From the NCBI GenBank assembly GCA_017508245.1, contig JAFVZI010000014.1, positions 221,889 to 285,888 of the forward strand: 64,000 nucleotides of DNA, in the 5' to 3' direction. Below the pieces are notes generated by a model. The model ran no database searches and had not been told where the DNA came from. It was given only the letters and a program-made list of their open reading frames with translations. This DNA comes from Helicobacteraceae bacterium (GTDB lineage: Bacteria > Campylobacterota > Campylobacteria > Campylobacterales > Helicobacteraceae). Below, one piece after another: positions 1-62,770 of the stretch. The stretch's first letter is position 1; every line of letters begins with the position of its first letter. The position numbers and the translations under genes were made by a program.

Positions 1-378
1 TTCTTTTTTTGCCAAATCACATAGGATTCTACAAAATGGCTGCATTGCCATATCTTTAAATGCCCTAGTTGGACCGGTGTATAATTTTTGAAGAAATAAA
101 TTATCATCTAACTTAGTGAAATCTAGCGGAGTATTTGGGTTATCAAATGTTTTATAAGAAAAAAGTGCATCACAAAGAAGGCTAGAATCCGCACCTAGAA
201 TCTTAAAAATATATTTTGTCAAATCATTATACGATAAATCTTTTATATCATCGATACTTATTTGTGGAATATTTTTCAAACTCCACAATCCATTAAAACT
301 AGCAACAGGCTTTAATATCGCCTCATACAAACCGATATTAGCATCTCTGCCGTCATTTCCTCTTGTTTCTATTAACAT
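1..378 (-). CDS. thrC: Threonine synthase, N-terminal part (runs off window edge; not in ORF track)
   Basis: Hand translation MLIETRGNDG...LQKLYTGPTRAFKDMAMQPF contains the PLP-lysine motif GPTxAFKD; ATG at 378 overlaps the end of the upstream gene. Confidence 0.9.
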   Translation of the reverse strand, partial: MLIETRGNDGRDANIGLYEAILKPVASFNGLWSLKNIPQISIDDIKDLSYNDLTKYIFKILGADSSLLCDALFSYKTFDNPNTPLDFTKLDDNLFLQKLYTGPTRAFKDMAMQPFCRILCDLAKKE

Positions 379-1130
379 TTAAATTCCTTTAAAAAAGCTC
401 TAAGCTTATTGTAATCTTTGCGACTTAGATACCTGCTCTTTCCACTAGGAAGTGCATTAAGCTCTACAAAACCATAGCTTACGCGTTTTAAATCAATTAT
501 ATCAAGTCCAAAATAAGCAAAAAATCGTCTTAATTCTCTATTTTTTCCCTCTATAATTCCGACCTTTATTTTGCTCCAAGATTCTGCCTCTTTGATAATT
601 TCAAAAAAACTAAATGGTGCAAAATCCATAGCTTTTATCTTGCTATACTTATGTGCTCCGGCACTCGCATCACTTAGACTCAAGCCATCATTCATCGCAT
701 CTATAACTTTTTGATTAATCTTACCATTGATTTTTAGATTGTAGATTCTAATTAAATTGCTTGTCATTAACTTTGTTGCAATTTCTTTAGAATCTGTAAG
801 TAAAAGCAATCCACTTGATGCAAAATCTAGCCTACCTACTGGAATATAATTTCTAAATTTAGAATCTAGCGTATCATAAATTATCCTTCTACCTCTATCA
901 TCACTTTTACTTACAAGTTCATTTTTTGGTTTATGATAAACAATCACACTATATTTTGTGTTATCTTTTGGCTTAATCTCTTTGCCATTAATAAAAACTC
1001 GCTCTTTGGTTACAATATCTCCAAAAGTTGCAATTTTATTATTTAGCTTTACCTTACCGTCTTTTATAAGTTCATCGGCTTGTCGCCTAGAAAATTCCGT
1101 ATTGTGTGAAATCCACTTATTTAGTCTCAT
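372..1130 (-). CDS. rluB: RluB/RsuA-family pseudouridine synthase with S4 domain
   Basis: N-terminal S4 (MRLNKWI..SRRQADELI), catalytic GRLD, EGKNRELRR. Confidence 0.85.
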   Translation of the reverse strand: MRLNKWISHNTEFSRRQADELIKDGKVKLNNKIATFGDIVTKERVFINGKEIKPKDNTKYSVIVYHKPKNELVSKSDDRGRRIIYDTLDSKFRNYIPVGRLDFASSGLLLLTDSKEIATKLMTSNLIRIYNLKINGKINQKVIDAMNDGLSLSDASAGAHKYSKIKAMDFAPFSFFEIIKEAESWSKIKVGIIEGKNRELRRFFAYFGLDIIDLKRVSYGFVELNALPSGKSRYLSRKDYNKLRAFLKEFKC

Positions 1131-4100
1131 TATGCAATCTTAAAACTTCTCATCTTCTCTTTAAAATTATTATTGATTTTATAATTTGAATACAATAGAT
1201 ATGAAAGATTCCTGTCTTGCACTCTAAATACAAGTCTCTCACTACCACCATTTTCTATTGCAAGATTCTGTATATCTTTTAGATTCTCATATGTAAGATT
1301 ACAAGATACATCTAAAATATAATCTATGGTATCTTCTATGACCTCATTTTCGGCAACTATCATAGAATCTTTGGTATCATTTTCTTCTACAAACTCAATA
1401 TTTACTCTCTCGCTTTTTGCTTCATCTATGGATATGATTTTTTCGATTTGCAACGATATTAAACCATCCCTAAGACTTGCCTTGCATTTTAAGCATATAG
1501 GCTTATTTTTTGGGGCATTTTCTATCTGCTCAAGATGTTTTTCAAAAACTTGAAGCCAGATATTGCCGACCTTATCTACGATAAGAATCTCTGCAAAACG
1601 ATTCCCTTTTTTGCTAATCTTAGATTTAATATCTTTGATAATCCCAACAATTAACAATCTTGAGCCTTCTTTTAAGCGCTCTATGTCATAGCTTAGGACG
1701 ACACCTTTTATATTATCAATCTCATTGCTAAAATCATCAAGCGGATTCCCACTCATAAAGATTCCAAGCATCTCATATTCAAAATCTAATAATTCCATCT
1801 TGCTATATTCATCTTCATGTATGATATTAAGCACCAAATCACTGCTTGTATCATCAAAATCTTTGAATAGAGAATCATTTGAATTTATTATTTCTAGATT
1901 CTTAGAGTTATTTTTAACCGCATCAGCAATATAATCAAGATTATTTATAATACTTTTTATACTATAGCCCAAATCACGCAATGTCCCTGATTTTGCTAAA
2001 GATTCTATGACTTTTTTATTTATCACTTTAGAATCTATTTTGCCTAAAAAATCTTCTAAAGTATCAAATTTTTTATCTTTTCGTGCTTGCAATATCATTT
2101 GTATAGGCTTCTCGCCAATTCCTTTAATCGCACTAAATCCAAATATAATTTTCTTATCCCCATTGATAATATCAACACTAAAATCTTCCATAGAACTATT
2201 AATATGAGGTGGCAATACATCAATACCCATATTTCTACATTCTTGTATATATTGATTTATATTATTGACATTGTTTTTCTCGCTTGATAATAATGCTGCC
2301 ATAAATTCGTGTTTGTAATAAGTCTTGAGATATGCTGTTTGAAATGAAATCATTGCATATGCAGCAGAGTGAGATTTATTAAACCCATATCCTGCAAATT
2401 TGACTATAAGTTCCCATAATTCATCGCTCTTTGCTACATCAAATCCATTATTTTTTGCACCACTTAAAAATTTAGCTTTATTTTCAGCCATAATTTTATT
2501 ATCCTTTTTACCCATCGCCCTGCGAATCAAATCCGCTTCACCAAGTGAGAATCCACCGATAGTTTGCACTATTTGCATAACTTGTTCTTGATAGACAATA
2601 ACACCATAAGTGCTTTTTAAAATCTCCTCTAATTCAGGAAATATGTATTGTGTTTTTTTGACACCGTGCTTTCTATCAATAAAGTCATTTACCATTCCAG
2701 ATTCCATAGGTCCTGGACGAAAGAGTGCAAGAACAGCTACTAAATCATCAAAACTATTTGTCCTTATCTTTCTATTTAAAGCTTGCATTCCGCTAGATTC
2801 TATTTGAAATATTCCTACTGTATCACCGTTTCGTATCGTTTCATATACTTTTTGGTCATTTAAATCAATGGTATTAAAATCTATCTTGTTATTAATAAGC
2901 TCAAATGTTTTATGAATCACGCTTAGAGTTTTTAACCCTGAAAAGTCGAATTTTATCAAATCAACTTTCTCTAAATAATCCATAGAATATTGTGTAGCGA
3001 TTTTATCGCCGATTTTACACAATGGAATCTTCTCCCATAATTCATTTTCACTATTGATTACAATAGCAGCAGCGTGAGTTCCTAAATTTCTCTTTTGGTT
3101 TTCTAACACAAGTGCATTCTCCCACACAGCATTTAAAACCTCATCTTTGGCAATAGTTTGTGAAATTTTTGGCTCTAACTCAAAAGCACCCAGCTTATCT
3201 TTATCGGCTTGATCACCTGTCTTTAGCTGAATTTTTAATTTATTTGGAATTAATTTTGCAAATTCATCAGCCTTTTTATACTCAACTCCAAAAACTCTTG
3301 CAACATCTCTTATTACAGATTTTGCAGACATTGAGCTAAATGTTACGACGTGTGCGACATTATTTTCACCATATTTATTAATAACATAATTTATAATATC
3401 ACCTCTTTTATCTTGACAAAAATCCATATCAATATCTGGCATACTAATTCGCTCTGGATTTAAAAATCGCTCAAATAGCAATATATGTTTTATTGGGTCA
3501 ATATCTGTGATTTCTAAACAAAATGCCACCAAACTACCTGCTGCACTTCCTCTACCCGGTCCAACTGGTATATTTTGTCTTTTTGCTTCTCGCACAAAAT
3601 CCCAAACAATGAGCATATAACCAGAAAATTTCATTCCTTTTATGACCTGCATTTCATAATCCAGTCTATCTCTATAAATTTGGTGATTTTCTTTTTTTAC
3701 ATTTTTTAGCCTATTTTCAAGACCTTCCTTGCATTTGTATTCAAAATAAGAATCATCATCTATGAAATCTAGTCCTTCATTTTTTGCATACTCACTTGTA
3801 AATTTAAAAGTAGGTGCAGTCGGTGGCGTATTTTTTGTAATAATATTTCCATTTGGGTCTTTTATCTCAATACTTTTTAAGTCTATAATCAAATTGCATT
3901 TATCTACTAATTCTTGTGTATTTGTAAGTGCATCTGGAATATCAACAAATAATCTTTCCATTTCCTCACACGATTTGATATAAAATTCATTTACAGAATG
4001 TTTCAATCTATTGTCGTCTTTTAGTGTTTTTCCAGTAGAAATACACATCAATACTTCTTGTGAAAATGAATCTTTTTTAGTTGTATAATGCGTATCGTTT

Positions 4101-4720
4101 GTAGCAATTATTTTTATTCCTGTTTGAGTAGATATGTTTATGATTTGCTCATCTATAAACCTTTGCTCCAAGATTCCATGACGCATAATTTCTAAATAAA
4201 AATCATCACCAAAAATATCTTGATATTCCAACGCTACTTTTTTTGCATGCTCAAATCCTTTAGCATTATTTCTTTGGCTGATTGTATTTAGATGATAATT
4301 TACTTCACCTTGAAGACAAGCAGAAGAACAAATAAGCCCGTTAGAATGTTCTTTTAATATTTTTTTATTTAATCTTGGACTTTTATAAAACCCATTTATA
4401 TATGCTTGAGAACTAAGATACATAAGATTCTTATAACCTGTTAGATTCTTTGCATATAGACACAAATGGAATCTAAGTGGATTTTTAGAGCCTAAATCTT
4501 CATCATTATGTATATATGTCTCAATTCCAATTATTGGCTTTATGCCTTCTTTTAGCATATTAATATAAAAATCAAGTGCACCAAACATGCAGCCGTGGTC
4601 TGTTAGAGCGACAGATTTCATATTTAGCTCTTTTAGTCTTTTTGCCAGCTTTTTAATCTGATTTGCACCATCAAGTAAGGAATATTCACTATGCAAGTGA
4701 AGATGTGTAAAATTACTCAA
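1130..4720 (-). CDS. dnaE: DNA polymerase III alpha subunit
   Basis: PHP motif HLHLHSEYSLLDG, GPGRGSAAGSLV, MPDIDMDF, YGFNKSHSAAY, C-terminal OB fold. Confidence 0.98.
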   Translation of the reverse strand: MSNFTHLHLHSEYSLLDGANQIKKLAKRLKELNMKSVALTDHGCMFGALDFYINMLKEGIKPIIGIETYIHNDEDLGSKNPLRFHLCLYAKNLTGYKNLMYLSSQAYINGFYKSPRLNKKILKEHSNGLICSSACLQGEVNYHLNTISQRNNAKGFEHAKKVALEYQDIFGDDFYLEIMRHGILEQRFIDEQIINISTQTGIKIIATNDTHYTTKKDSFSQEVLMCISTGKTLKDDNRLKHSVNEFYIKSCEEMERLFVDIPDALTNTQELVDKCNLIIDLKSIEIKDPNGNIITKNTPPTAPTFKFTSEYAKNEGLDFIDDDSYFEYKCKEGLENRLKNVKKENHQIYRDRLDYEMQVIKGMKFSGYMLIVWDFVREAKRQNIPVGPGRGSAAGSLVAFCLEITDIDPIKHILLFERFLNPERISMPDIDMDFCQDKRGDIINYVINKYGENNVAHVVTFSSMSAKSVIRDVARVFGVEYKKADEFAKLIPNKLKIQLKTGDQADKDKLGAFELEPKISQTIAKDEVLNAVWENALVLENQKRNLGTHAAAIVINSENELWEKIPLCKIGDKIATQYSMDYLEKVDLIKFDFSGLKTLSVIHKTFELINNKIDFNTIDLNDQKVYETIRNGDTVGIFQIESSGMQALNRKIRTNSFDDLVAVLALFRPGPMESGMVNDFIDRKHGVKKTQYIFPELEEILKSTYGVIVYQEQVMQIVQTIGGFSLGEADLIRRAMGKKDNKIMAENKAKFLSGAKNNGFDVAKSDELWELIVKFAGYGFNKSHSAAYAMISFQTAYLKTYYKHEFMAALLSSEKNNVNNINQYIQECRNMGIDVLPPHINSSMEDFSVDIINGDKKIIFGFSAIKGIGEKPIQMILQARKDKKFDTLEDFLGKIDSKVINKKVIESLAKSGTLRDLGYSIKSIINNLDYIADAVKNNSKNLEIINSNDSLFKDFDDTSSDLVLNIIHEDEYSKMELLDFEYEMLGIFMSGNPLDDFSNEIDNIKGVVLSYDIERLKEGSRLLIVGIIKDIKSKISKKGNRFAEILIVDKVGNIWLQVFEKHLEQIENAPKNKPICLKCKASLRDGLISLQIEKIISIDEAKSERVNIEFVEENDTKDSMIVAENEVIEDTIDYILDVSCNLTYENLKDIQNLAIENGGSERLVFRVQDRNLSYLLYSNYKINNNFKEKMRSFKIA

Positions 4721-6066
4721 TTTGCCGCCTTTGCAAAAGTTTCAACAAATTTAGCTATTAAAACAATAACAATTACTAATGTAGCAATGTATTTGATTAT
4801 AAAATACCATATGTTAAATATGGTTCTACTCATAAATCCTTTTACAAATCTATATACGACTTTTTTACTAACAACAAATCCCAAAAATATCAATGCCAAT
4901 AATGCACCAAGAGGCATAATAATAGCTGCTGTAAAGAAATCTATCCAGTCCATAAACCCTTTGCCAAAAAATGTCAAATATGGACCATAATCTTCTGTAA
5001 GAGATAAGATGACAAGCAAACCAATAGCAAATATCGCAACACACAATAAATATGATGCTTTTGGACGACTTATATTGTAGTTATCGGATAAATAAGCTAC
5101 AGGTGGCTCTAAGATTGATATTGTTGAGGTGATTCCGGCAAACAATACTGCGGCAAAAAATAAAAATGAAACAATATTTCCATAAGCCATTTGACTAAAT
5201 ACCAAAGGTATAGATTTAAATAACATTCCAGGACCGCTACTGGCTGATTGACCATAATTGAACAAAAATGTAAAAATAATAATTCCTGCAATGAGTGATA
5301 TAACAATACCAGAGAGTGCAACCCAAGCAGAACTGCTTAATAAATTATCTCCCTTTTTTGCAGATGAACTATAGGTGATAATCGTCCCAACACCAATAGA
5401 GAGCGAAAAAAACATCTGACTTAAGGCCATAATGATTACATCTGTATTGATTACATTCACATTAAATGAAAATAAAAAATCTACCGCTTGGTCAAATGAA
5501 TCCACAGTCATCGCATAGAAAAATAATCCAATAAAAATGATAAACAATAATGGCATTAAAATGAAATTATACTTTTCTAATCCATCTTTAACACCTTTTG
5601 CGACAATATAGCTAGTCAAAAATATACAAACGCCAAAAGAGGCACTAGAAGCAAGAACATTATCTGAAACAAATGCACCAAAAGTATTATTCGATGCCTC
5701 TATTGTATCTGGAAGATTGAAAGAAACAATAGCTAAATAGTAAAAAACCCAGCCCAAAACAACAGCATAAAACGTAAGGATTAGCGGTCCGCCAATAATC
5801 ATTATGCCTGCTTTTTTCCAATGTTTTTTTACCGTAGGGTCTAGTGTATCAAATGCTCTAACGACATTTTTTTGTGTTTTATTTCCAATAACCATCTTTG
5901 CTACAAGGATAGGAATCCCTATAAAGATAGTCAAAAATATGTAAATCACAACAAATGCACTTCCTCCATATTCACCCGTCATATACGGGAATCTCCAAAT
6001 ATGTCCTAGTCCAATAGAGCTTCCCAAAGTCGCTAATATAAAACCTAGCTTTGTAAAACTATTCAT
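4717..6066 (-). CDS. Sodium-dependent transporter, NSS/SNF family
   Basis: GSSIGLGHIWRFPY signature, QMFFSLSIG, many TM helices. Confidence 0.93.
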   Translation of the reverse strand: MNSFTKLGFILATLGSSIGLGHIWRFPYMTGEYGGSAFVVIYIFLTIFIGIPILVAKMVIGNKTQKNVVRAFDTLDPTVKKHWKKAGIMIIGGPLILTFYAVVLGWVFYYLAIVSFNLPDTIEASNNTFGAFVSDNVLASSASFGVCIFLTSYIVAKGVKDGLEKYNFILMPLLFIIFIGLFFYAMTVDSFDQAVDFLFSFNVNVINTDVIIMALSQMFFSLSIGVGTIITYSSSAKKGDNLLSSSAWVALSGIVISLIAGIIIFTFLFNYGQSASSGPGMLFKSIPLVFSQMAYGNIVSFLFFAAVLFAGITSTISILEPPVAYLSDNYNISRPKASYLLCVAIFAIGLLVILSLTEDYGPYLTFFGKGFMDWIDFFTAAIIMPLGALLALIFLGFVVSKKVVYRFVKGFMSRTIFNIWYFIIKYIATLVIVIVLIAKFVETFAKAAN

Positions 6067-6169
6067 TTTTTTATTTCTTTATGTTGATTTGACTGATTCG
6101 ATAATGATACTAAAAAAATATTTATCATTAATTAAATGTTTCAATATTTCAAAAATTATGCAATATGGG

Positions 6170-7264
6170 TTATTGTATTGATTGAAAATACTCATTTAGC
6201 TTCGCATCTTGTGTGCCTTGAATGTTAGATATTGCATTTATACTACTTGAAAATAAAAGTGAGATTCCAGTAAAAATATTGCTACCCATACTATTTGCAC
6301 CACGGATTCTTGCAAATCTCGTAGAAATAAATGGAGAAAAAGCTAAACCATTATTAATACTCACATCAAGCCTGACACTAAGGCTAAAATTATGAAGTAA
6401 ATCACTTTCTCTAAACCTAGAATATCCCACATATTGTCTCATAAAACCTTGATAAATAAGCCTTATATCATCGTTAATTGGGGTTTTAGCTCTTAGTCCG
6501 GCTTCTATTGCTCCTTTTATGCTACTTGGTTTATATGTTAAATCAATCTCACCTACTCCTGCAAAATAAAACTCATCAATATATTTACCATCTAAGAATC
6601 TAAGACCCGCTTTATAACGCAAATAGTGATTTTTTGAACCATCATCTTGTTTTGTAAATTCACTCTGATATTCACCATCTATAAATGGACCTAAAAATCC
6701 ATTCTCAAACAACAAAACTTTACGCGTATAACCAGTGCTAAAAATAACATTATCTGCTGTTTCATTTCTAGTTGTAGCTTCATATTTTGGATTAAGAATA
6801 ATTAGTCCATATTCTGCATATAATCTATTTGTTATCCTGCTATTGGCCAAGTTGTGTTCTAATGCAAAATCTGCTATCAAACTAGCAACAGTCGTGTTAT
6901 CTCCACTAAATTTATTTGTGCCAAACTTTCTATACTCATCACTCACATTTATCGTAGTATTTGAAAAGTCAATGGCAATCCTTCTTATATCAATCTTTAG
7001 CAATGTCTCTTCTACACCACCAATAAAACCAGTAATCACATCTTCAAGATAACTATTTGGAAAAATCTGCTTTAGTATAGAAAGACTAGAATCTTCTTTG
7101 GTATTGTTTAGATTCTCTTTTTTTTGGTTTTGATTGAAAAAATTATCTTGTAATTTAAGATTTGAAGAATCTTTATCTAATGACTTTACTGCATTCTGCA
7201 AGCTCGCAGAATCATCCCCATAAAGAAACAATAAAATGGTAAAAAAAATAACTAAAAGTTTCAA
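6170..7264 (-). CDS. Exported protein, probable outer-membrane beta-barrel of unknown function
   Basis: Signal-peptide-like N-terminus; alternating hydrophobic/polar strands rich in Gly/aromatics; TTG start abuts fabH stop. Confidence 0.55.
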   Translation of the reverse strand: MKLLVIFFTILLFLYGDDSASLQNAVKSLDKDSSNLKLQDNFFNQNQKKENLNNTKEDSSLSILKQIFPNSYLEDVITGFIGGVEETLLKIDIRRIAIDFSNTTINVSDEYRKFGTNKFSGDNTTVASLIADFALEHNLANSRITNRLYAEYGLIILNPKYEATTRNETADNVIFSTGYTRKVLLFENGFLGPFIDGEYQSEFTKQDDGSKNHYLRYKAGLRFLDGKYIDEFYFAGVGEIDLTYKPSSIKGAIEAGLRAKTPINDDIRLIYQGFMRQYVGYSRFRESDLLHNFSLSVRLDVSINNGLAFSPFISTRFARIRGANSMGSNIFTGISLLFSSSINAISNIQGTQDAKLNEYFQSIQ

Positions 7265-8281
7265 TTACTCGCCATTAAAATATAACAAACTTGAACCCCA
7301 AGTGAGTCCTCCACCAAAGGCGTCTAATAATAATAAATCTCCTTTTTTAAGTCTGCCTTCTTTACAAATATCATCAATAGCCATAGGAATACTAGCAGCC
7401 GAGGTATTGCCATATTTATTCACAGTTACTACAACTTTAGAAGCATCAATCCCTATTATATCACCAACTGCATTTATTATTCTCAGATTCGCTTGATGTG
7501 GTATAAAATAAGTTACATCATCAATATTAATATTATTTCTAATTAGAATCTCTTTGACATCATTTGCCAGTGTTTTGACCGCTATTTTAAATGTTTCATT
7601 ACCTCTCATTTTTATATAGTTTTGCGTCGCATCTATTTGTGATACATAAAATTCATTAGAAAAATTTAGATTTGAACCCAAACACCGCGGTGTCATTAAA
7701 AAATCATTATATTTACCATTTGCACTAATATTGACATCAATAATTCTTTCATTTTCATTATTTGTAGCACTAATTACTGCTGCTCCAGCACCATCACCAA
7801 ATAAAACACAAGTACTTCTATCACTAAAATCTAAAATAGAGCTAATTTTTTCTGTGCCTACAATAAGAATATTATTATAGGTATTAGATTCTATAAATGA
7901 TTTTGCAAGAGATAAAAGATATATAAATCCACTGCAAGCCGCAGTTATATCAAATGCTGGTTTGTTTTCTATTCCAAGCCTACTTGAAATAAGACAAGCA
8001 TTTGAGGGCATACCTAAATAATCTGGGGATAAAGTAGCACAAATAACCAAATCAATATCATCTGGTTTCATACCTGCACGACTTATTGCAAGATTTGCTG
8101 CTTTTACTCCAAGTTCGCTTGAAGCTTCATTGTTATCTGCAAAATAGCGAGTTTTAATACCTGTTCTTTTTGTAATCCATTCATCAGATGTATCAATTAT
8201 TTTTTCAAAGTCTTCATTGGCAACACAATTCTTTGGCACATAGGAAGCTATGGACTTCATTGATGCATATTTTTTTTCCAC
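7265..8281 (-). CDS. fabH: 3-oxoacyl-ACP synthase III
   Basis: [33 protein letters not shown]; start moved to GTG 8281 behind an AAGGGG RBS. Confidence 0.96.
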
Positions 8282-9278: not shown

Positions 9279-9288
9279 TTATTCAAAC

Positions 9289-26528: not shown

Positions 26529-28109
26529 TATTTTACCTTATATACACTGAAGTGGATTGGTAACATTGATATATTATCGCTTAGTACCAAATCTTTTTTT
26601 GAAGCGATGATGATGGATTTTAAAATCGATTTTATTCCTAAAAATGGTATATTAAAGCCATAATCACTATAAAATAATAATTCATAATTACTAGAATCTA
26701 AAGATTTAGTAGAATAAGGCGTCCATACGACTAAATCACCACTTTTTTTAGAAATAACATCATTACTTTTAAATACACTATATTTTGAAATGGGATCCTC
26801 TACTCCAAGCAAAATATTATCGATTGGCAGGTCAGATTTCATATCAAAATCATCTATACTCCTAAATTCCAAATTTTTAATAAAACTATGATATACCTCA
26901 CCACTGCTTGCACGATTTACGCCATCTAGGTAAATGCTAGTGTGTGGATTCTTATGAATATAAGAGGTGATAAAATCAATTGTATTTGCAAAATTATTCG
27001 GTACAGCCTTGTAATGATTAAACTGATATATAAATGCGGGAAAGGCATTAAAAAGCCAAACAAAGGCACAAATAGCGATGAGAAATTTTACAAACAGATA
27101 TTTAAAATATTCTCGCAAATAAAATGCAAGTGGGATAATCCCAAAAATATATGCCGGAAGCGGATAATGGAAGCTATAAATATTTAGTGCGAAATATGCC
27201 AGAGAATGCAAAGCACTTGCAATCAATGCAGAATCCAAAATAGGATTGATTTTAAAATGCTTAAAAGAAACTAAATAGAATCTAAAAACAAGCAAAGCAA
27301 AGATTCCAATAAATAGAAATGGCTCACTAAGTGTGTAATTGATGATATTTTTGAAAAATACTATTATTGCATTATACGGAGTATCACCATAATTTCCACT
27401 TGTAGTTTTGATAGAAAGCACAAAAACATAATACGCAATAACCCATACAACGCAAGAAAATAAAAGCAATAAACTCAAAATTTTTGGATTTTTATTTTTT
27501 TGTTTGTATGAAAACAATACATAAAAAAAGCAGAATCCACCTAACATTATAAATGCCACTTCTTTATAATATAGTGCGAAATTTGCAGAAATTAGTGCCG
27601 ATACGAAAAATATGAATCTATTTGTATCACAGAATCTAATAAATGAAAAAATAAAAATTGCAAAAAAGACGCTCTCTAGTTTCTCAGGAACAAAAAGCCT
27701 CAGAAATGATGTAACAAACGCAGGAGAAAAAAGGATAATAAGAATCCAAAATAAGCTATGAATTTTATTTCGTAAAAAACGATTTAACGCAAAAAAGACA
27801 CAACAAATCAAAATAAATGCAAAAATGCCAGAGAAAATATAAAAAATATCTGCAGAGATTCCAAAAATACTAGAAATGATATTTAACTCTTGTGCATCAA
27901 GTGGGTAAAATCTCCCGATTTCTGGCAAAATGAAAAATGGTATTTGCTTTCCAATAAAAAGAGTAGATAGTAAAGTATGGTCATCAATCACACCAAAATT
28001 TGGATAAATCGCAATATTTACAAGATAAAATAAAATTAGTAGATATAAAAATACTAATAATTTCTTATGTTGCTGCTGCCCCCCCCCTATTTATGCTAAA
28101 AAATTCCAA
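26528..28109 (-). pseudogene. GT-C-type (GtrC-like) membrane glycosyltransferase, frameshifted at a 5' G9 tract (phase OFF)
   Basis: AAGGA RBS and TTG 28109; G9 gives MEFFSINRGGAAAT*; G8 gives MEFFSINRGGQQQHKKLLVFLYLLILFYLVNIAIYPNFGVIDDHTLL..., joining ORF 26528..27991 (526 aa); DD after first TM and GRFYPL motif. Confidence 0.8.
28079..28087 (-). repeat. G9 homopolymer, out of frame
   Basis: C9 on + strand: tgttgctgctg-ccccccccc-tatttatgcta. Confidence 0.9.
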
Positions 28110-30266: not shown

Positions 30267-30773
30267 ATGATAAATAGGCAAGGGTTTTCGATGATTGAAT
30301 TGGTGTTTGTAATAATAATACTTGGTTGCTTAGCCGGAACTGCTACAACTTGGCTTCTTCAAACAAGGATGGATTCTCAAGTGGCAATGACTAGAAGTGA
30401 TATTGCTACAATTTTAAAGCAGGTGCCAGCGAGGGTTGTTGCTGAAAATGTTAATATTTCTAATACACCACCAAATGGTTATACTACTTGGGGTGAATGG
30501 CTGATGGATACACCATCGCTTGACAAAAGCAAGTGGCAACCTACCCAAAATGGATTGATTGCTATTTCCCTTATTGAGTCAAATAGGCAAAATAATAGAG
30601 TTATTGCTTGTTCTGGTAATTATATTCATTTAGATTTAGCGACTGGAAAATTGCATTTTGATCCAGATATGATTGACAAAAAGATTACATTTTGCAGATT
30701 GCTTGCAGAGAGTTATAATAGTGGCTCAAGCCGAACAATAGACCTAGTAACAAATAGTAAAACAATATTTTAA
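30267..30773 (+). CDS. Prepilin-type (class III signal) pseudopilin/pilin-like protein
   Basis: RQG|FSMIELVFVIIILG cleavage/N-methylation motif; C-terminal Cys pair. Confidence 0.88.
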   Translation: MINRQGFSMIELVFVIIILGCLAGTATTWLLQTRMDSQVAMTRSDIATILKQVPARVVAENVNISNTPPNGYTTWGEWLMDTPSLDKSKWQPTQNGLIAISLIESNRQNNRVIACSGNYIHLDLATGKLHFDPDMIDKKITFCRLLAESYNSGSSRTIDLVTNSKTIF

Positions 30774-31649: not shown

Positions 31650-31741
31650 AAGTCAAACCCTCTTTGCTTGAAATTCAAATTAATTTTAACCAAAAAATAG
31701 ATAGAATCTACAACCATTTTAATTTTAGGAGCAAAAAATAT

Positions 31742-32787
31742 ATGGCTGACAATGAAAAACTAAAAGCCGTTGAATTGGCTTTAAAACAAGTTGATAAGGC
31801 TTTTGGTAAAGGTGCTTTGATACGGCTTGGTGATAAACAAAAAGAAAAAATCGAATGTATATCGACAGGTTCTCTTGGGCTTGATTTAGCACTTGGAATT
31901 GGTGGGATTCCAAAAGGTAGAATCATAGAAATTTATGGACCAGAATCTAGTGGCAAAACAACACTTAGTTTGCAGATTGCAGCAGAATGCCAAAAACAAG
32001 GTGGAATCTGTGCATTCATCGATGCGGAACACGCACTAGATGTGTATTATGCAAAAAAGCTAGGCGTAGATGTTGAAAATCTCTATGTATCACAGCCAGA
32101 TTATGGAGAACAAGCACTAGAAATACTAGAGACACTAACTAGAAGTGGTGGAATAGATTTAATTGTAGTAGATTCTGTTGCGGCACTTACCCCAAAAGCA
32201 GAAATTGACGGCGATATGGGCGATGCTCACGTAGGACTTCAAGCAAGACTTATGAGTCAGGCATTGAGGAAAATTACAAGTGTGATTCATAGAATGAATA
32301 CAACAGTAATTTTTATCAACCAAATAAGGATGAAAATAGGCAATATCGGCTATGGAAATCCAGAAACAACGACAGGTGGAAATGCTCTAAAATTTTATTC
32401 AAGTGTAAGAATCGATGTTCGTCGCGTAAAAACACTAAAAGTAAATGAACAAGCCATAGGAAATACCGTGAGAGCAAAGGTTGTTAAAAATAAAGTTGCC
32501 CCTCCATTTAGAGAAGCTGAATTTGACATTATGTTTGGTGAAGGAATCTCAAAGTTAGGGGAATTGATAGATTATGGTGTAAAGCTAGATATTATTGATA
32601 AGAGCGGTGCTTGGTTTAGCTACAAAGATAAGAAAATGGGACAAGGAAAAGAAAACTCTAAAATATTCTTAAGTGAAAATATAGATATTGCAAAAGAAAT
32701 CGAAAACAAGATAAAAGAGCAAATCGGTGCAAATGATGAGATTATAGAATTTATAGATGATAATATAGAAGATGAAAAGGATAACTA

Positions 32788-32788
<1 letters not shown>
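31742..32788 (+). CDS. recA: Recombinase A
   Basis: [26 protein letters not shown]; ATG 31742 behind AGGAG. Confidence 0.99.
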
Positions 32789-41386: not shown

Positions 41387-42339
41387 TCAATGATAGAATC
41401 CACAAAATATCTAGGACGGGCTTTGCTTTCTTTATAAATCTTACCTATATATTCACCTAAGATTCCAAGTCCAAAGATTTGGACACCACCTAAAAAATAC
41501 ATAGGCACGACCATAGAAGTCCAACCGCTAATTGTTCCACCCATAAAATAAACTACCAAAGCCCAGATTCCAAAAAATAAAGATGTAATAGATATTATAG
41601 CACCAAGGATACTTAAGATTCTAAGAGGTTGCACACTAAAGCTTGTTATTCCATCAAAAGCAAAACTAAGCATTTTAAAAAATGGATACTTACTTTTTCC
41701 TGCTACTCTAGCATTTCTTTTATAAAATATAGCACAAGATTTATACCCAAGGAGAGGAATGATTCCACGAATAAATAAATTCACCTCTTTAAAAGACAAG
41801 AGGGATTTTATCGCACGATTAGATAAAGCACGATAATCGGCGTGATTTTTCACAATTTTTACACCCAAAAAATTCATCAAATCATAGAATCTCTCCGCAC
41901 TAAATCGCTTAAAAAAGCTATCACTGCTTCTATCATCTCGCACGCCATAGACCACTTCATAGCCATTGTTGAATCGCTCAATCATAGAATCTATTGCATT
42001 TATATCATCTTGCAAATCACAATCAAGGCTAATAGCACAATCGCATTTATCGATTGCGTATTCTAGCCCAGCTAAAAGGGCATTTTGATGTCCATAATTG
42101 CGACTTAGATTTATGATTATGATATTTTGATTTTTCAGCTCTTTTAAAAGCTCCAAAGTATTGTCCTTTGAGCCATCATTTACAAAAATTATTTTGCTTT
42201 GTTTGTTTATACTTTTATTGTTTATTAGATTTTGCAGTTTAGAATCCAGAGATTCTGCACTTAAATTGATGATTTCTTCCTCATTATAACAAGGCACAAT
42301 TAGATAAATGATAGGTTTAGATTCTTGTGTATCTTTCAT
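41383..42339 (-). CDS. GT2 bactoprenol glycosyltransferase (GtrB/YfdH-like), stand-alone paralogue without G/C tract
   Basis: VPCYNEE, NDGSKD, GHQNALLAG, DCDLQDD, ADYRAL, KARPRY; ATG 42339 behind AAGG. Confidence 0.92.
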   Translation of the reverse strand: MKDTQESKPIIYLIVPCYNEEEIINLSAESLDSKLQNLINNKSINKQSKIIFVNDGSKDNTLELLKELKNQNIIIINLSRNYGHQNALLAGLEYAIDKCDCAISLDCDLQDDINAIDSMIERFNNGYEVVYGVRDDRSSDSFFKRFSAERFYDLMNFLGVKIVKNHADYRALSNRAIKSLLSFKEVNLFIRGIIPLLGYKSCAIFYKRNARVAGKSKYPFFKMLSFAFDGITSFSVQPLRILSILGAIISITSLFFGIWALVVYFMGGTISGWTSMVVPMYFLGGVQIFGLGILGEYIGKIYKESKARPRYFVDSIID

Positions 42340-55189: not shown

Positions 55190-56068
55190 CTATTCTATAT
55201 TAAATCCGGTATTGTCAAATTCTAGTTCCAATACTCTAAATTCTCCAAATTTCTTACTCAAACTACTGGCAAGTTTAGAAGAATCATCACGATAACAAAT
55301 ATTTAAAAATGTCGAACCACTGCCTGATAACACACTCATCAATGCACCTCTTTTTAGTGCTTCTTTGCGAACTGCAAATAATGCTGGAAATAATGCCATT
55401 CGCTTATCTTGATGGATTCTGTCTTCTGCTGCAATTTTTAAAAGATTCCATCTTTTTGATAAAAATACACCAGTAAGCATTGATGACCTAGATATATTAA
55501 ACACTGCATCGTGCAAGCTATATTGCTTTGGCAGTGTTTTTCTTGAATAACGAGTAGATATTGCCTTGTTTGGAATAACGACAACAGCTTTTATGTCATT
55601 TGGAATCTTATGCCTTATATAAAATACTTTTGAGTTTTTTATCATAGCAATGTTAAAACCGCCATTTACCGCTGGTGTAATATTATCTGGATGCTTTTCA
55701 TATTTTATTGCTTTAGATAGTATCAAATCTCTTGTATATGGCACTTTCAACATCTCATAAGCAGATATTATTGCACCAATTACGACAGCAGAACTACTAC
55801 CAAGACCACGAGAAACTGGAATCTCATTTTTCAAATAAAAAGTAAAATCTCTTGTCTCTCCACCTAATTCACGATAAACATCCTTAAAAATTTTTATAAA
55901 ATTATTATCTTTTAAAAGCTTTGGAATATCACTGCCCTCCCCATCAATCCTGATGCTTTGCACTATCGATGGTGAAACTTCAAATCTATTATATAAGCTA
56001 AGGGACAATCCAAGAGTATCAAATCCCGGACCTAGATTTGCACTTGTAGCGGGAACTTTTACTATCAA
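55190..56068 (-). CDS. thrB: Homoserine kinase
   Basis: VPATSANLGPGFD, PVSRGLGSSSA, HPDN, SGSGST. Confidence 0.97.
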   Translation of the reverse strand: MIVKVPATSANLGPGFDTLGLSLSLYNRFEVSPSIVQSIRIDGEGSDIPKLLKDNNFIKIFKDVYRELGGETRDFTFYLKNEIPVSRGLGSSSAVVIGAIISAYEMLKVPYTRDLILSKAIKYEKHPDNITPAVNGGFNIAMIKNSKVFYIRHKIPNDIKAVVVIPNKAISTRYSRKTLPKQYSLHDAVFNISRSSMLTGVFLSKRWNLLKIAAEDRIHQDKRMALFPALFAVRKEALKRGALMSVLSGSGSTFLNICYRDDSSKLASSLSKKFGEFRVLELEFDNTGFNIE

Positions 56069-56539
56069 TCAAACTCCTATTGTGGCAGGCAAAATATAAA
56101 GTGGAAAACAAGAATTACTAAATCTAGTAGAATCTAGCACAAAAGGCAATTTAAATACCGCATTGTGCTTGGATTCTAACTTGATTGTTTTAATATCATT
56201 ATTTTCTTTTAAAAAGTGGATTTTACCATAAGCCTCTATAAAATCATCTTTGGTAAAATAGAAAGAATCCACACAAAAAAGCTCTATATTATTTATTATG
56301 CTCAGTGTTTGTAAAAATATATGCGTTAGTTTCAATGAGCTAAAATTACCCGGTCCATTTGCATAAAATATCCTATTTATAGCATATACAGCCATCACTT
56401 CACTAAATAATTGTGGCAAAATATCACTTGTCTTACCATTAGATTCAAGCTTTTTGATAAGTTTATTATCAATATAGATTCCAAGTAAAATTGGCGATGA
56501 AATGCTAATTAGGCAAATATCACACTTTTGTTGTTGCAT
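56069..56539 (-). CDS. Short TsaB/YeaZ-like t6A biosynthesis protein
   Basis: [17 protein letters not shown]; same position as the Helicobacter gene between lpxC and thrB. Confidence 0.75.
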
Positions 56540-57413
56540 ATTCAAGATTTTCTTCTTGTGCCTCATTTTCTAATGTTACAATTTCAAATGTATCACTTTG
56601 TGATAGTATTTTTTTTGTCAAAAAATGATTTAGTTTATGGCTACCTGCAAACGATATATAAGTCCCAATTAATGGCATACCAAGAATACTCATATCACCG
56701 ATTGCATCTAGAATCTTATGACGAACAAACTCTTCTTTATATCTAAGACCTTCTTTATTTAGGATTCCACTCTCATCAAGAACTATACAATTAGAAAGAT
56801 TCCCGCCTTTTGCAAGCCCAATTGAGCGTAAATAATTCACTTCTTGCAAAAATCCAAATGTCCTAGCTCTTGCAATCTCATCTTTATACGCTTGAATCGA
56901 ATATGTGAATCTATAGTGCTGCTCTTTTATTGATTGATGAGGAAAATTTATAGTGAAATCAAAAATAGTTTTATTGCTTGGCTCAACTTTTACAAATTTG
57001 TCCCCATCATTAATTTCAATGGGCTTTTTAATGACAATAGCTCGTTTTTTTGCACTCTGCTCTACTATACCTGCTTCATCTAACAACATACAATATCCAA
57101 TAGAGCTGCCATCCATTATAGGAACTTCTTCATTATCTAGTATAATTCTAAGATTATCTATGCCATATGCATGTATAGCAGATAAGAGATGTTCAATGGT
57201 AGAGATTTTTGCATCACCATTTCCAAGTACGGTTGCCAAAGTGGTGTCTATAATATTATCTGCAGATAGCTTGATACTTTGCCCCAAATCACTTCTAAAA
57301 AACACTATACCGCTATCCTCGCCTAAAGGCTCTAATATCATTTTTACAGATACACCTTTATGAAGTCCAATACCGACCAATTCAACGCTATTTTTTATAG
57401 TTCTTTGATTCAT
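56520..57413 (-). CDS. lpxC: UDP-3-O-acyl-GlcNAc deacetylase
   Basis: [36 protein letters not shown]. Confidence 0.98.
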
Positions 57414-57448
57414 TTGTAATTACCCCAAAAATGATGAATTTATAGAAT

Positions 57449-58075
57449 CTAAAGTGACAAAATATCTTTAATGTTTAATTCATCATTATCTTTATATATT
57501 AGATTTAACTTGTATTTTAACATATTGGCAGTGATTATATCACCTTGAAAGGTTACTTTTCCTTTTGTAATTTTGGATAATATCAAAAATTCACCATCAC
57601 ATTGCACATCACCATTGCATTCACCAAAAATACAAATATTGCTTTGACTTGTCAGCATCGCTCCACTATTTACACGATTAAAAACCAAAATATCGCCACT
57701 ATTTACAATACTCTCTCCGCTTCTAACCAATCTAGTAATAAACTTTGATTTTGTAGATGAAAGATTCTCATTTGATAAAGCAGAATCTTGTTTAATGCTT
57801 TCTTGTGGATTAATTATTTTACTTTCTTTATTTATTTGCTTTAAAATATTTGCGATTTCTTCCTTATTGTCTATAAAGCTTAAATGTTTATTTTTGATAT
57901 AATCAACATCACTGGAATCCAAAAAGTCTTTTACCGCCGCACTTAGATTATCAAATACAAGCAAATATCCCTTAAAAAGTGGCAAACTTTTTTTCAAGAA
58001 TCCTAGCAATTCATCATCGCTATTTTCGCCTAATATATGAAAGATTCTAATATTTTGCTGATTTATTTTTTGCAT
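57449..58075 (-). CDS. minC: Septum site-determining protein MinC
   Basis: VRSGESI..GDILVFNRVNSGA beta-helix motif. Confidence 0.8.
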   Translation of the reverse strand: MQKINQQNIRIFHILGENSDDELLGFLKKSLPLFKGYLLVFDNLSAAVKDFLDSSDVDYIKNKHLSFIDNKEEIANILKQINKESKIINPQESIKQDSALSNENLSSTKSKFITRLVRSGESIVNSGDILVFNRVNSGAMLTSQSNICIFGECNGDVQCDGEFLILSKITKGKVTFQGDIITANMLKYKLNLIYKDNDELNIKDILSL

Positions 58076-59430
58076 TATCTATTTTCTATGATATTAATTG
58101 CTTCACTCAAAACATCATTTATATTAGTTTTAAGCCATCTACTATCCATAAATTCGGTACTAAGTGCAAAAACACCCTGAATCAATACTCCAAAATGCAA
58201 ATGGTCGCCAAATGCAAGACCAGTAGCCCCTGTCCTTGCTATCACATCACCTTTTTTTACTACATCGCCTTCTTTGACATAAAATTCACTTAAATGAGAA
58301 TACAAAGTAGAAACCCCAAGCCCATGATCTATAACAATTGTATTACCATAGATTCCAAGACCCTCTTTTAACACAACAACTCCATCATTTGACGCAAAAA
58401 CTTGTGCATTTTTGACATTTGCCAAATCTATCCCCAAGTGATAGGATTCTCCAGCTGGCTCTTTGTTCAATGTATATTTTCTATGGTCACCAAACATTCC
58501 TACAATAACAGCATCTTTAAGAGGCTTAAAGACATTAATTTGATGTAAATCTTTTAAGTCCAAATTAAGAATCTTAGAATAAACCATATTTTCATCATTG
58601 TTTCTAATTACTTCATTTGCGTATTTAAACATCTCCAGTCTTGATGAAAATGAATCAAGCGATATTGTGCTTACACTCTCAATAACAGAAGCTATTTTAT
58701 TATCAATAAAACTATCTTTTAGAGTCAAATTAGATGTGCGGTAATTTCTGGAATATCTAGCAAAACCGATATTTGAACGTTTTATATTTCCAGCTTTATC
58801 TTCGACAATAATCCTGCCTTTAAAAGTCGGATTATGTATCGACCAAGGAACAATACTCACATAATAACCATCTTTTATAAATGGAAAAGCTACAAAGCTT
58901 TGATGCCCATTGCTAATGGATATATTTGCCAGATTATCGTCTTTTGCAAAAAATACAACTACCGCACTTCCGCCATAAGTAATCTTATTACTCATAGCGA
59001 TAATCCCTGCTTCTGGCGGTATCCTATCTACAATAATCTCAAATTCTTTTTGCGTTGTATTGCCAAGAAAAAACTTATACTTGCTATTATCAGTAACTTC
59101 AATTTTATATTTTAAGACATCTCCATCTACAATATTTATCTTCGGGATTGGCAAATTAAATTCAATATCTGTTTTAGTATCTTCAACTTTCTTATCAACA
59201 AGAATCACGATATCATCATTTTTAATGAAACTAACTTTATAAGATTTAATACCACTAGAATCCAATAATCTAATCGGCACATTCCATTTCAAGTTCCAAT
59301 AAGTTATATCCGGAATCTCAATATTTGGAGGAATCCGTTCAAATTTTGGAGAAGTGTATATAAAGATACACAAACAAGCAATCAAACCTGAAATAATATA
59401 AAATGGAATATTGCTATTTTTTTTAAACAT
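58075..59430 (-). CDS. M23-family peptidase
   Basis: HLGIDLA, YGNTIVIDHG, YSHLS, GDHLHF. Confidence 0.93.
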   Translation of the reverse strand: MFKKNSNIPFYIISGLIACLCIFIYTSPKFERIPPNIEIPDITYWNLKWNVPIRLLDSSGIKSYKVSFIKNDDIVILVDKKVEDTKTDIEFNLPIPKINIVDGDVLKYKIEVTDNSKYKFFLGNTTQKEFEIIVDRIPPEAGIIAMSNKITYGGSAVVVFFAKDDNLANISISNGHQSFVAFPFIKDGYYVSIVPWSIHNPTFKGRIIVEDKAGNIKRSNIGFARYSRNYRTSNLTLKDSFIDNKIASVIESVSTISLDSFSSRLEMFKYANEVIRNNDENMVYSKILNLDLKDLHQINVFKPLKDAVIVGMFGDHRKYTLNKEPAGESYHLGIDLANVKNAQVFASNDGVVVLKEGLGIYGNTIVIDHGLGVSTLYSHLSEFYVKEGDVVKKGDVIARTGATGLAFGDHLHFGVLIQGVFALSTEFMDSRWLKTNINDVLSEAINIIENR

Positions 59431-59519
59431 ATAACAAGCCTTTAAAAATTATGGGAAAATAAAAAGAGAAGATATTTTAATCTTGATTTTATTAAAAATA
59501 CTTGATATGAATAGATTCA

Positions 59520-60578
59520 TTATTTCATCTGTGATGCTATTTGTTCTGTAGTTTGCAAGATTTCTGCAACTGCCCTAAATAATTCTTGTGGAATATAATC
59601 ATCAATTTCACACAATCTATACAAATCTCTTGCCAATTTTGGCTGTTCTCTAATTGGAATATTATGTTCCCTTGCTATCTCTTTTATTCTAATCGCCAAT
59701 AAGTCTGTGCCTTTTGCCATCACCACTGGTGCAACATCCTCGTGCAATACAAATTTCAATGCGACTGCATAATGTGTAGGATTTGTGATAACAATGGTCG
59801 CCTTTGATACATTTGCAAGTATTTTTCTCGAAGACATTTTTCTCATTGTTTGACGAATTCTGGCTCGAATCTGCGGGTTTCCTTGTAATTGTTTGTATTC
59901 ATCTTTTACTTCTTGCTTTGTCATTTTCAAGCTTTGGATATATTGCCTTCTGCGAACATAAAAATCAATGGCTGCCATAAAAAAAAATAATATAAGCAAT
60001 ATCAAGCCAAGTATCAATGCCTTATCTTTTAGCCATATTAATTGGGAAAAAATATTTAAAAATGCAATATTTGGCAATTCTTGCAAGAATCCTAGAAATA
60101 CAAAACAACCAAGACTTAAAGCGATGGAAACCTTCAGTGTAATAAGAAATCCATCTAATATTTTTTTTATTGAAAGCAAATTTTTAAAACCCGTAATCAT
60201 ATTTATTTTTGAGAATTTTGGAATAATAGTTTTAATAGTGATTAAAAATCCAAATTGTGCGACATTACCAGCAATAGCAGCAATCATTAAAACCAAAAAT
60301 ATCGGAGCAACAATAATAACACTTTCTTTGATAATAAAAATCGCTAGATTTAACATTCCTGAATCATTAAAATTATCTAGACTAAAATTTATAACATAAA
60401 CAAATAGATTCTCTATTCTCTTGCCTAAAAATGGTAATAAAAAAAATATAACACCAAGTCCAAATAATAATGCCAAAAATCCTGTTACTTCTTGGCTTTT
60501 GCTTACATTTCCCTCTTCTCTAGCTTTTTGTTTTTTATAATCACTAGGAAGTTCTGTCTTTTCTTCATTTTGTGCCAT
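59520..60578 (-). CDS. flhB: Flagellar export substrate-specificity protein
   Basis: EEKTELP, KMTKQEVKDE, NPTH autocleavage site. Confidence 0.97.
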   Translation of the reverse strand: MAQNEEKTELPSDYKKQKAREEGNVSKSQEVTGFLALLFGLGVIFFLLPFLGKRIENLFVYVINFSLDNFNDSGMLNLAIFIIKESVIIVAPIFLVLMIAAIAGNVAQFGFLITIKTIIPKFSKINMITGFKNLLSIKKILDGFLITLKVSIALSLGCFVFLGFLQELPNIAFLNIFSQLIWLKDKALILGLILLILFFFMAAIDFYVRRRQYIQSLKMTKQEVKDEYKQLQGNPQIRARIRQTMRKMSSRKILANVSKATIVITNPTHYAVALKFVLHEDVAPVVMAKGTDLLAIRIKEIAREHNIPIREQPKLARDLYRLCEIDDYIPQELFRAVAEILQTTEQIASQMK

Positions 60579-61191
60579 ATTCTTCCCTTAGAATCTTTAG
60601 GGCATTTTCATAATCTTGTTTAGTATTGAGATTTACAAATTCAAGAGTATCAAAATATATTGACTTTGCATTGCACGATGATAAAAAATCAAGAATCTTA
60701 AATTCATTATTTTTTAGGGCTTTGGCAATCTTATCTTTTATATTTCTCTTCCAGATTCCAATCAAGGGATGCATTTTATTAGAATCTTTTGCATAAACTA
60801 CATCGCAATCATTACTATTATTTATCAATATGCCAATTGTATGAGATTTTATAAAAGGATAATCTACTGGAATAAAAAATATTTCATTAGCATTTAGGGT
60901 ATCAAAACAATTCAAAATGCCAAATAATGGACTAAAATACTCTAAATCTTCTGTGATAATTTGAATAGATTCTATATTTATTTTAGTTTTTGATATATCA
61001 TCATCTAAGATTCTAAGTATTTCATCCTTTTTATTTTCTTTTAGCGAGATTGCTACACTTGAGAATATTTGTGATAGTTTTATGATTTGATAAGTTATGA
61101 GCCTATAAGCACCAAAAGGTAAAATGGTCTTATTGGATTCCATCCTACTGCTTTTACCGCCACACAAAACTACACAAGATTTCTCAATCAT
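60565..61191 (-). CDS. mobA: Molybdenum cofactor guanylyltransferase
   Basis: LCGGKSSRM..NK, PVDYP, HPLIGIW, NLNT. Confidence 0.9.
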   Translation of the reverse strand: MIEKSCVVLCGGKSSRMESNKTILPFGAYRLITYQIIKLSQIFSSVAISLKENKKDEILRILDDDISKTKINIESIQIITEDLEYFSPLFGILNCFDTLNANEIFFIPVDYPFIKSHTIGILINNSNDCDVVYAKDSNKMHPLIGIWKRNIKDKIAKALKNNEFKILDFLSSCNAKSIYFDTLEFVNLNTKQDYENALKILREEYGTK

Positions 61192-61205
61192 ACAAATCAA
61201 AAATC

Positions 61206-62645
61206 CTAACAAGAATATGTGCTTACAAACTCAAATGGGTGAGGTCTAGCTTCCCAAGGCCAAATCTCTGTTTCAAATTTATAAGCTTTATATGTTTGCA
61301 AAAACTCTTCACTAAATACATTTCCATATTTTAAAAATTCCCTATCTAAAAGCATTTCTTCTATGGCACTTCTTAGTGTATGAGGAAGTTGCTTAATATT
61401 TCTCTCTCTAATCTCATCAAGAGTTAATTCAAATAAATTTATATCCATAGGCTCGCCCGGATGAGTCTTATTTGTTATACCATCTAAGCCTGCCATAAGT
61501 AATGATGCAAACGCTAAATAAGGATTGCTTGAACTATCTGGGAATCTAAACTCCATTCTCTTTGCTTTTTCACCACTATTATATGGGATTCTAACACTTG
61601 CACTTCTATTTTGTGCGGAATATGAGAGAATGCTTGGTGCTTCAAATCCAGGAATTAGCCTTTTATATGAATTTGTAGAAGCATTTGTGAATGCAGCGAT
61701 ACTTCTTGCGTGCTTTAAAACTCCACCTAAATAAAATAATGCAATATCGCTTAAGCCTTGATATTTTTTGCCTGCAAAAAGATTCTTACCATTTTTCCAA
61801 ATACTGATATGGACATGCATACCGCTTCCATTATCGCCATATAATGGTTTTGGCATAAAAGTTGCAGTCTTGCCATTTAGATGTGCTACCATTTTTACTA
61901 CATATTTTAATTTTTGCACATTATCTGCTGCTTCTAATAAATCGCCAAATTTTACGCCTATTTCACCTTGAGCTTGACCTACTTCATGATGAACAACAAA
62001 TGTTTCTAATCCTACTTGATTGAGCACTTTTACCATTTCTGCTCTAATATCTACCATAGTGTCAATTGGCGGAGTTGGAAAATATCCACCTTTTGTCCCG
62101 CTTCTATGCCCAATATTCGTGCCACCTTCAAATTCTCTATCTCTATTCCATTCGCCCTCTTCTGTATCAATCTCATAATATTGACAATTTATTGCATCCT
62201 TCATTTTTATACTATCAAATACAAAAAATTCATTTTCTGCACCAAAATAAGCAACATCACCAAAACCTTGCTCTTTTAGATATTGGACTGCTTTTTTTGC
62301 AATACTTCTAGGACATTTTTCATATGGTTGGTTCTTGTAAATATCCCAAATATCACAAAAAACTATGACAGTAGTATCTGCACTAAAGGGGTCTAAAAAA
62401 TATCTAACTGGATCTGGAATAAGCAACATATCGGATTTATCTATCGGCTGCCACGCTGGAATCGATGAAGCATCGACTGGCAATCCATTAAAACTTTCTT
62501 CATCAATAGCACTCATATAAAAACTGATATGATGCCAAGTCCCTTTGATATCGGTAAATCTAAAATCTACAAATTCGACTTCATTATCACTACAAAATTT
62601 AAAAAACTCTTTTATTGCATTTATTCTATCTGCTGTTTTATTCAT
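61206..62645 (-). CDS. glnA: Glutamine synthetase type I
   Basis: [39 protein letters not shown]. Confidence 0.99.
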
Positions 62646-62770
62646 ATAAAGCTCCTTATCAAACTTAGATTTGGAATCTTATAAAAGTTTAGTTTAATAA
62701 ATAATAATCATCTGATAATAAAAAATATTTTGAAAGTCTAGAATCTATATTTAAAGATTATTAAAAAAAA

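Follow-up and report, generated by a model that had tools for sequence, protein, structure and literature searches.

A short DNA word built around the core GAWTC (GAATC or GATTC) is scattered in large excess through the 64,000-nucleotide stretch analysed here (the window; contig JAFVZI010000014.1 of a Helicobacteraceae bacterium) and through most of the family to which its host belongs, and it is likely to be an apparently undescribed self-recognition tag that a pilus-type DNA-uptake machine would prefer. The word, TAGAATCT or its reverse complement AGATTCTA, is real, family-wide and apparently undescribed. Taken together, the analyses favour, with moderate confidence, a signal comparable to the DNA uptake sequences (DUS) of Neisseriaceae and the uptake signal sequences (USS) of Pasteurellaceae, built up by molecular drive and probably read in methylated form, as RAATTY is in Campylobacter.

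Between positions 183 and 62746 the window holds 49 exact copies of TAGAATCT and 50 of AGATTCTA, on both strands and both within and between genes, a total of 99 against 5.1 expected from a zero-order model and 7.4 from an order-2 Markov model; AGAWTCT occurs 164 times, GAWTC 373 times and GASTC 15 times. The first exact copy (TAGAATCT, 196..203) and the last (TAGAATCT, 62739..62746) both lie on the forward strand, and an oppositely oriented close pair sits inside dnaE (2000..2036, with AGATTCTA at 2000 and TAGAATCT at 2029). The draft genome to which the window belongs (G000; 836,459 bp, 57% complete) contains 1,240 such 8-mers, about one per 700 bases, at 1.1-1.8 per kb on all 12 contigs longer than 3 kb, with GAWTC at 4,079 against 173 for GASTC. 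A first-pass annotation of the window had put the exact copies at about 95-100 against about 5 expected and had taken the core to be GAWTC rather than GANTC in general; both statements are borne out, all 20 of the coordinates that it quoted carry the 8-mer (position 183 holds the variant TAGAATCC), and the excess extends genome-wide, GAATC being the top-ranked 5-mer in both Markov tests. Its description of the element as a nine-base quasi-palindrome, TAGAWTCTA, needs correcting: across the genome the base following TAGAATCT is A in 447 cases, T in 474, C in 168 and G in 151, so that the ninth position is uninformative, and the flanks are asymmetric, TAGAATCT reaching an observed/expected ratio (O/E) of 19.4 compared with 12.2 for TAGATTCT. 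Scanning one base at a time yields (T>C>G)(A>G)GAATC(T>C), with A or T tolerated at the centre; the word is an asymmetric TAGAATCT around a symmetric AGAWTCT.

Codon preference, which the annotation had judged insufficient given copies on both strands and in several frames, indeed falls short. When 20 within-gene synonymous-codon shuffles held the protein and the codon use of each gene fixed, coding DNA was found to carry 412 TAGAATCT against 55 after shuffling (7.5-fold) and 641 AGATTCTA against 100 (6.4-fold); the word lies in several reading frames, and the 8-mer is denser between genes (1.95 per kb) than in coding DNA (1.41 per kb). The proteome is also shaped by the word, as LDS, LES and KDS rank within the top four over-represented tripeptides. 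Copies are spaced nearly as in a Poisson process (coefficient of variation 0.98-1.09) and are unpolarised with respect to replication (513 versus 562 in the two orientations, judged by GC skew in 20-kb bins, a rough guide on draft contigs), with equal forward and reverse counts in single-contig relatives; identity with Chi or KOPS was rejected because strand polarity with replication is lacking. Close pairs 10-29 bp apart are inverted in 74 cases and direct in 39. Convergent spacers carry 6.0 copies per kb (21 sites only, terminators not being called) versus 2.4 in genes, divergent (promoter) spacers are not enriched (2.0 per kb), and no convincing helical periodicity of 10-11 bp was seen.

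The distribution over relatives was surveyed in 151 genomes, comprising 113 outside the genus designated g7 and 38 within it, with enrichment taken as an 8-mer count at least 3-fold above that of the reversed-word control. The 8-mer is enriched in 92 of the 113 and in none of the g7 genomes, all 38 of which show ratios of 0.29-1.06 to the control. Density among relatives varies from about 0.5 to 5.6 per kb, the extreme being G062, with 15,249 TAGAATCT in 2.7 Mb (about 5.6 per kb) and a high density even in the contig with a type IV secretion system (T4SS). Among eight named prophage records, those of H. cinaedi, H. canis, H. ganmani, H. equorum and H. pullorum contain the word at O/E 7-22, while those of H. 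pylori, H. heilmannii and H. bizzozeronii hold 0, 2 and 2 copies, a contrast that suggests g7 to be the stomach clade. In the 276 genomes surveyed from other Campylobacterales families, GAATCT stands out only in G058 (1,770 per Mb) and G037 (1,390 per Mb), the next being at about 1,110. The word is found in most of the family and in two sister families represented by one genome each, and the annotation's proposal of a motif system peculiar to this lineage holds as to the motif-based system and fails as to its restriction to the lineage.

Clade dialects emerged when 40 genomes, sampled over 20-120 kb each, and four named loci were compared: the GAWTC core persists even where the 8-mer does not, and the flanks differ from clade to clade. 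GCGAATC is used in G005-G008 (a 100/100 clade on the LepA tree of ten g1 genomes), TGGAATC in g3 and H. turcicus, GGGAATCG in G035 and AAGAATCG in G010. The sole g14 genome, G022, has a GATC core, with the words TAGATCCG, CAGATCT and TAGATCT at about 5 sites per kb and no GAWTC excess; g4, G020 and g7 lack a core excess, and g9 has an O/E of only 1.4. A control locus of C. concisus, from a genome with an EcoRI-type methylase, is rich in RAATTY.

The word co-occurs with components of a pilus-type machine. The secretin PF00263 was found in 113 of 113 genomes outside g7 and 0 of 38 within it, and pilins with the N_methyl signature in 38 of 38 and 0 of 3, respectively, of those examined. The host has an intact operon with T2SSF, T2SSE and secretin outside the window (G000:C12:113.7-122.4 kb), as well as PilT within a minor-pilin operon, a FimT-like pilin and 12 matches to N_methyl. 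Minor pilins are encoded at G000:C12:209893-210309, C8:111706-112422 and C13:32587-34549. H. pylori takes up DNA by a different, T4SS-based route. A conserved basic minor pilin of about 130 residues, modelled at pLDDT 80, aligns only with generic type IV pilins (VIA-align: best Z 5.6, rmsd 4.6, 117 aligned), with no specific match to a receptor of the ComP type; a Foldseek search with this model returned no match at E<=0.001. The genomes G000, G009, G004 and G002 each have 12-13 pilin-like genes, and many dispersed major-pilin copies are near-identical, their N-terminal half and C-terminus being constant and the region between them variable, which looks like a pilin variation system; in G000, such genes lie at G000:C11:4820, C12:204894 and C14:22045 and at the contig ends of C9, C13, C5 and C10. 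The window itself contains a type IV pilin-like gene (N_methyl; 30267..30773, forward strand), a diverged member of the multicopy pilin family, and recA (31664..32788, forward strand), which recombination of incoming DNA needs and which is given for context only.

The evolutionary force on the word was gauged from synonymous two-state sites in 337 orthologues shared by G000 and its sister species G009 (88% nucleotide identity), over which the motif counts of the two are equal (1,649 versus 1,631). In the pooled core contexts, which omit two of the eight core tests as not estimable, the odds ratio is 6.9, with gains raised x1.85 [1.44-2.44] and losses lowered x0.27 [0.20-0.37]; at that odds ratio fixation bias predicts gains of 2.2 and losses of 0.32, a hot spot 6.9 and 1, and pure protection 1 and 0.14. 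For the flank pool the figures are x1.98 and x0.52, both with broad intervals, the cleanest individual tests point the same way (TCT/TCA flank: gains x3.2 and losses x0.21, against predictions of 2.9 and 0.19), and flank positions free of restriction sites show odds ratios of 15-40. Since raised gains and lowered losses fall near the fixation-bias prediction, something favours fixation of the word, and the pattern fits fixation bias rather than a mutation hot spot; a mock-context control showed that site avoidance inflates some contexts. Density also declines from 3.03 to 1.79 per kb between the least and most conserved gene quartiles (rho -0.21), and T4SS or prophage stretches, which at 20 kb may take in flanking core DNA, have fewer 8-mers per kb than the host core in 9 of 9 cases and less GAWTC in 8 of 9. 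The word is acquired by resident prophages and islands. Secretin co-occurrence, dialects, depletion in mobile and constrained DNA and fixation bias together support the annotation's suggestion that the pattern resembles that of an uptake signal.

The core coincides with a methylase target. G000 encodes a 358-residue methylase (L001, G000:C8:14121-15197) that matches CcrM at E 1e-110, aligns with it over 347 residues, including Loop-45 and the C-terminal segment (PDB 6pbd), and is an orphan, with no adjoining nuclease. Full-length relatives of this CcrM/HinfI type (E<=1e-90) occur in 19 of the 113 non-g7 and 24 of the 38 g7 genomes, and an unrelated small beta-class methylase of 220 residues, annotated as a DNA methyltransferase in H. 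hepaticus, H. cinaedi, H. bilis, H. pullorum and H. equorum, occurs in 51 of the 113 and in no g7 genome. The two families never overlap in the 113 genomes (8.6 expected; hypergeometric 2.5e-6, which exaggerates the case since related genomes are not independent). One GANTC-type methylase, never two, is present in 70 of the 113 and in 10 of 10 g1 genomes, two of the 113 have only broken or partial copies, and the G009 small-methylase gene sits between two genes that are adjacent in G000, an arrangement that reads as a direct methylase swap between these sister species. The small family presumably resembles M.HhaII. The latter methylates GANTC and is without the C-terminal segment (PMC7672430). 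A nuclease gene adjoins 3 of 30 small-methylase loci (L349, L354, L360) and is placed by Atlas near PF09520 HinfI (0.92), and the median GASTC O/E is 0.37 and 0.42 in carriers of one or other family (n=17 and 12) and 0.93 in non-carriers (n=9); the presumed likeness to M.HhaII, the HinfI-like neighbour and the GASTC depletion in carriers indicate that the small family is probably GANTC-specific. A genome search with PF09520 missed the nuclease beside the small methylase and is uninformative. Both G037 and G058, which have the top GAATCT densities outside the family, carry the small methylase. In three genomes (L351, L375, L376) the small methylase is adjoined by a HARE-HTH nuclease-like gene that differs from the HinfI-like partner, and G000 also retains an N6/N4 methylase remnant with stops within the match (L003, G000:C6:46365-47042).

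Biased uptake would be the simplest account of the enrichment, the dialects, the secretin co-occurrence and the gain/loss pattern. The bacteria would be competent, and a minor pilin would act as the reader, preferring DNA with GAWTC and the flanks of its clade; the preferred DNA would likely be methylated, and its recombination would then drive the word into the genome. For g11 and the greater part of g3, either the reader may tolerate DNA that lacks methylation or another methylase may serve. Uptake-driven accumulation has been modelled for USS (PMC7811141), and in C. jejuni, whose machine is of the same kind, DNA is imported only when its RAATTY sites carry methylation (PMC10046745, PMC8627207).

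A number of observations weigh against this account. For a self tag the word carries little information, since GAWTC turns up roughly every kilobase in foreign DNA. The word is also missing from almost all of the other families in the Campylobacterales. The losses of secretin and motif coincide in one genus and thus amount to a single evolutionary event; nor is secretin sufficient, for GAWTC is in slight excess at best in g4, G020, G022 and most of g9, all of which possess the gene. In G066 the secretin is split in two pieces (G066:C1:1140303-1140817), yet some 2,000 word copies are kept, which may reflect a recent loss of uptake or an assembly error. PilT was rejected as a correlate of the word (present in 26 of 151 genomes, it does not follow the motif), and ComEC was not found in the 57%-complete G000 genome. 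On the methylase side, the tie that the annotation drew to a GANTC methyltransferase survives as a likely link and not as one conserved enzyme: two families alternate, and both are absent from 43 of the 113 non-g7 genomes, among them motif-rich ones of g11 (9 of 10) and g3 (17 of 25). A common third methylase was not found when PF02086, PF01555, PF07669, PF13651 and PF05063 were searched in five of these genomes (PF05063 matched nowhere, controls included), and four candidates in g3 and g11 were discarded as three type I HsdM proteins and one unrelated enzyme. Conversely, the small methylase is present in G331 and G399, where word enrichment is absent, and in 6 of 7 g9 genomes despite their low core excess. 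The gain/loss test assumes equilibrium and is in some contexts confounded by avoidance of GASTC and AATT, the non-motif context ATTA behaves similarly in the mock-context control, and the result fits uptake drive and selection for a protein-binding site alike. Mobile DNA, finally, is just about 2-fold depleted and still enriched for the word.

The ambiguity of the gain/loss test bears on the possibility that selection keeps the word throughout the chromosome for binding by a cytoplasmic protein (acting in nucleoid structure, replication or repair, or as an epigenetic reader of methylated GANTC), like Dam or CcrM sites, with uptake uninvolved. Weak selection would raise gains and lower losses as well as drive would, and retention of exactly one GANTC-type methylase in most non-g7 genomes, random spacing and the absence of polarity are in keeping with it. 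This explanation is nevertheless unlikely, in that 24 of the 38 g7 genomes keep the same methylase type with enrichment absent, promoter spacers show no enrichment, helical periodicity is not evident, and density spans an order of magnitude among relatives whose flanks switch by clade. Methylation-directed repair or recombination inside the cell, after or independent of uptake, could also convert near-matches and protect the word, in a process like that of the highly iterated palindrome HIP1. A near-palindrome enclosing a methylase site, alternative words with alternative cores (GATC in G022), as Elhai describes for HIPs (PMC4390886), the acquisition of the word by resident prophages and islands, and a conversion bias that would yield the same gain/loss pattern are all compatible with this scheme; the asymmetric flanks, the motif-rich g11 and g3 genomes without a detectable GANTC methylase, the g7 genomes with methylase and without word, and the lack of a MutL or MutS1 signature in a crude motif scan of the 57%-complete genome make it quite improbable. 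A single CcrM-like methylase as the cause was rejected, because such enzymes do not follow the motif.

Mutation bias and restriction avoidance explain the data poorly. Neutral production of the word by a context-dependent mutation bias would place it, as observed, in all frames, between genes and in mobile DNA, but the intervals around x1.85 and x0.27 exclude both a pure hot spot and pure protection, which leaves this idea very improbable even though a mixture of the two may be compatible with the intervals. A by-product of codon use and restriction-site avoidance would draw on the strong avoidance of GATC, GCGC and CATG in the genome (O/E 0.10, 0.11 and 0.18) and on GASTC at 0.27-0.41 of expectation in the codon-shuffle analysis; GGCC (0.16), GTAC (0.26) and GGATG (0.43) are strongly avoided as well, and AATT stands at 0.73. 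The by-product explanation is largely refuted and deserves the least credence, given that holding protein and codon use constant still leaves a 6-7-fold excess, the word is denser between genes, the high flank odds ratios arise at positions without a restriction site, and genomes rich in GATC (G021, G098, G033) still have the word.

Among known systems, the word comes closest to DUS and USS (PMC3630211, PMC3458573, PMC7811141). Like them, it occurs at about 1 copy per kb on both strands and shows no replication polarity; it varies between clades around a brief invariant core, is sparser in genes under constraint and in acquired DNA, forms some inverted pairs, and accompanies an uptake machine of the pilus type. 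It differs from them in being shorter and weaker (8 bp, with graded flanks), in having a near-palindromic core that is a methylase target, in its unrelated sequence and phylum, in the absence of a ComP-like receptor from the structure search and in an uptake preference that is putative here. Campylobacter CtsM/RAATTY offers the same order, the same type II secretion system/type IV pilus-type cts genes, an orphan adenine methylase and a short A/T-rich site (PMC10046745, PMC8627207), whereas the site here is GAWTC with preferred flanks, GAATTC is depleted (O/E 0.43), two unrelated methylase families alternate and both are absent from some motif-rich genera. The cyanobacterial HIPs, HIP1 and its alternatives, have similar densities (500-2,500 per Mb), an internal methylase site and, in some lineages, alternative words, but are true palindromes (e.g., GCGATCGC), G+C-rich and associated with m5C/m4C and GATC methylases (PMC4390886), while the Helicobacter word is asymmetric and was lost in the genus that lost the pilus secretin. 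By its sequence the word belongs to neither the RAATTY nor the HIP1 system. GANTC methylation by CcrM, M.HinfI and M.HhaII is related through the alignment of the G000 methylase with CcrM (PMC7672430), and G(m6A)NTC has been measured in H. typhlonius (PMC4705304); unlike general GANTC sites, only the W half is enriched here and the S half is depleted. No description of the word in Helicobacter was found in the full-text literature searched, as far as the available text of PMC5217627, PMC5101192, PMC539331, PMC1939737 and others extends, and supplementary word tables (e.g., of PMC5217627) or motif surveys such as AIMIE could mention it; the accessible part of Bakkali 2007 does not mention Helicobacter.

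The window is otherwise ordinary core genome of gut Helicobacteraceae, with dnaE, fabH, recA, eno, lepA, infB, flhB and glnA, and DNA of the host genome is present in sheep, pig and other gut metagenomes from several studies. A 122-bp stretch of the window (41405-41526) has a second copy about 2.3 kb upstream of position 28001 in strain contigs from runs X13 and X15, near a paralogous glycosyltransferase. The G000 genome also contains 31 nine-base G/C runs, suggestive of phase variation, and plasmid searches gave no Helicobacter record among the matches listed.

Uptake sequences have been regarded as confined to Neisseriaceae and Pasteurellaceae (PMC3597990, PMC3630211), and H. pylori is recorded as lacking them in the title of a reference cited in PMC3458573. 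A wider proposal, which we advance tentatively and hold to be possible rather than probable, is that non-gastric Helicobacteraceae are a third family with genome-wide uptake sequences and the first to join DUS-like dialects to a methylated core: a minor pilin would read m6A-GAWTC together with clade flanks, GANTC methylases would have been swapped to keep the tag, one lineage would have moved to a GATC core, the stomach clade would have lost the tag on exchanging the pilus for another route, and Campylobacter RAATTY would be another dialect of the ancestral system. If true, the DUS/USS model and the Campylobacter methylation model would be connected by a third family whose dialects are bound up with a methylase site, and a set of over 100 genomes, in which the word has naturally been gained, lost and switched between dialects, would allow molecular drive to be tested. 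Barriers to gene flow between gut Helicobacter clades would also be predicted, and the tag may explain why ordinary laboratory DNA enters gut Helicobacter species poorly.

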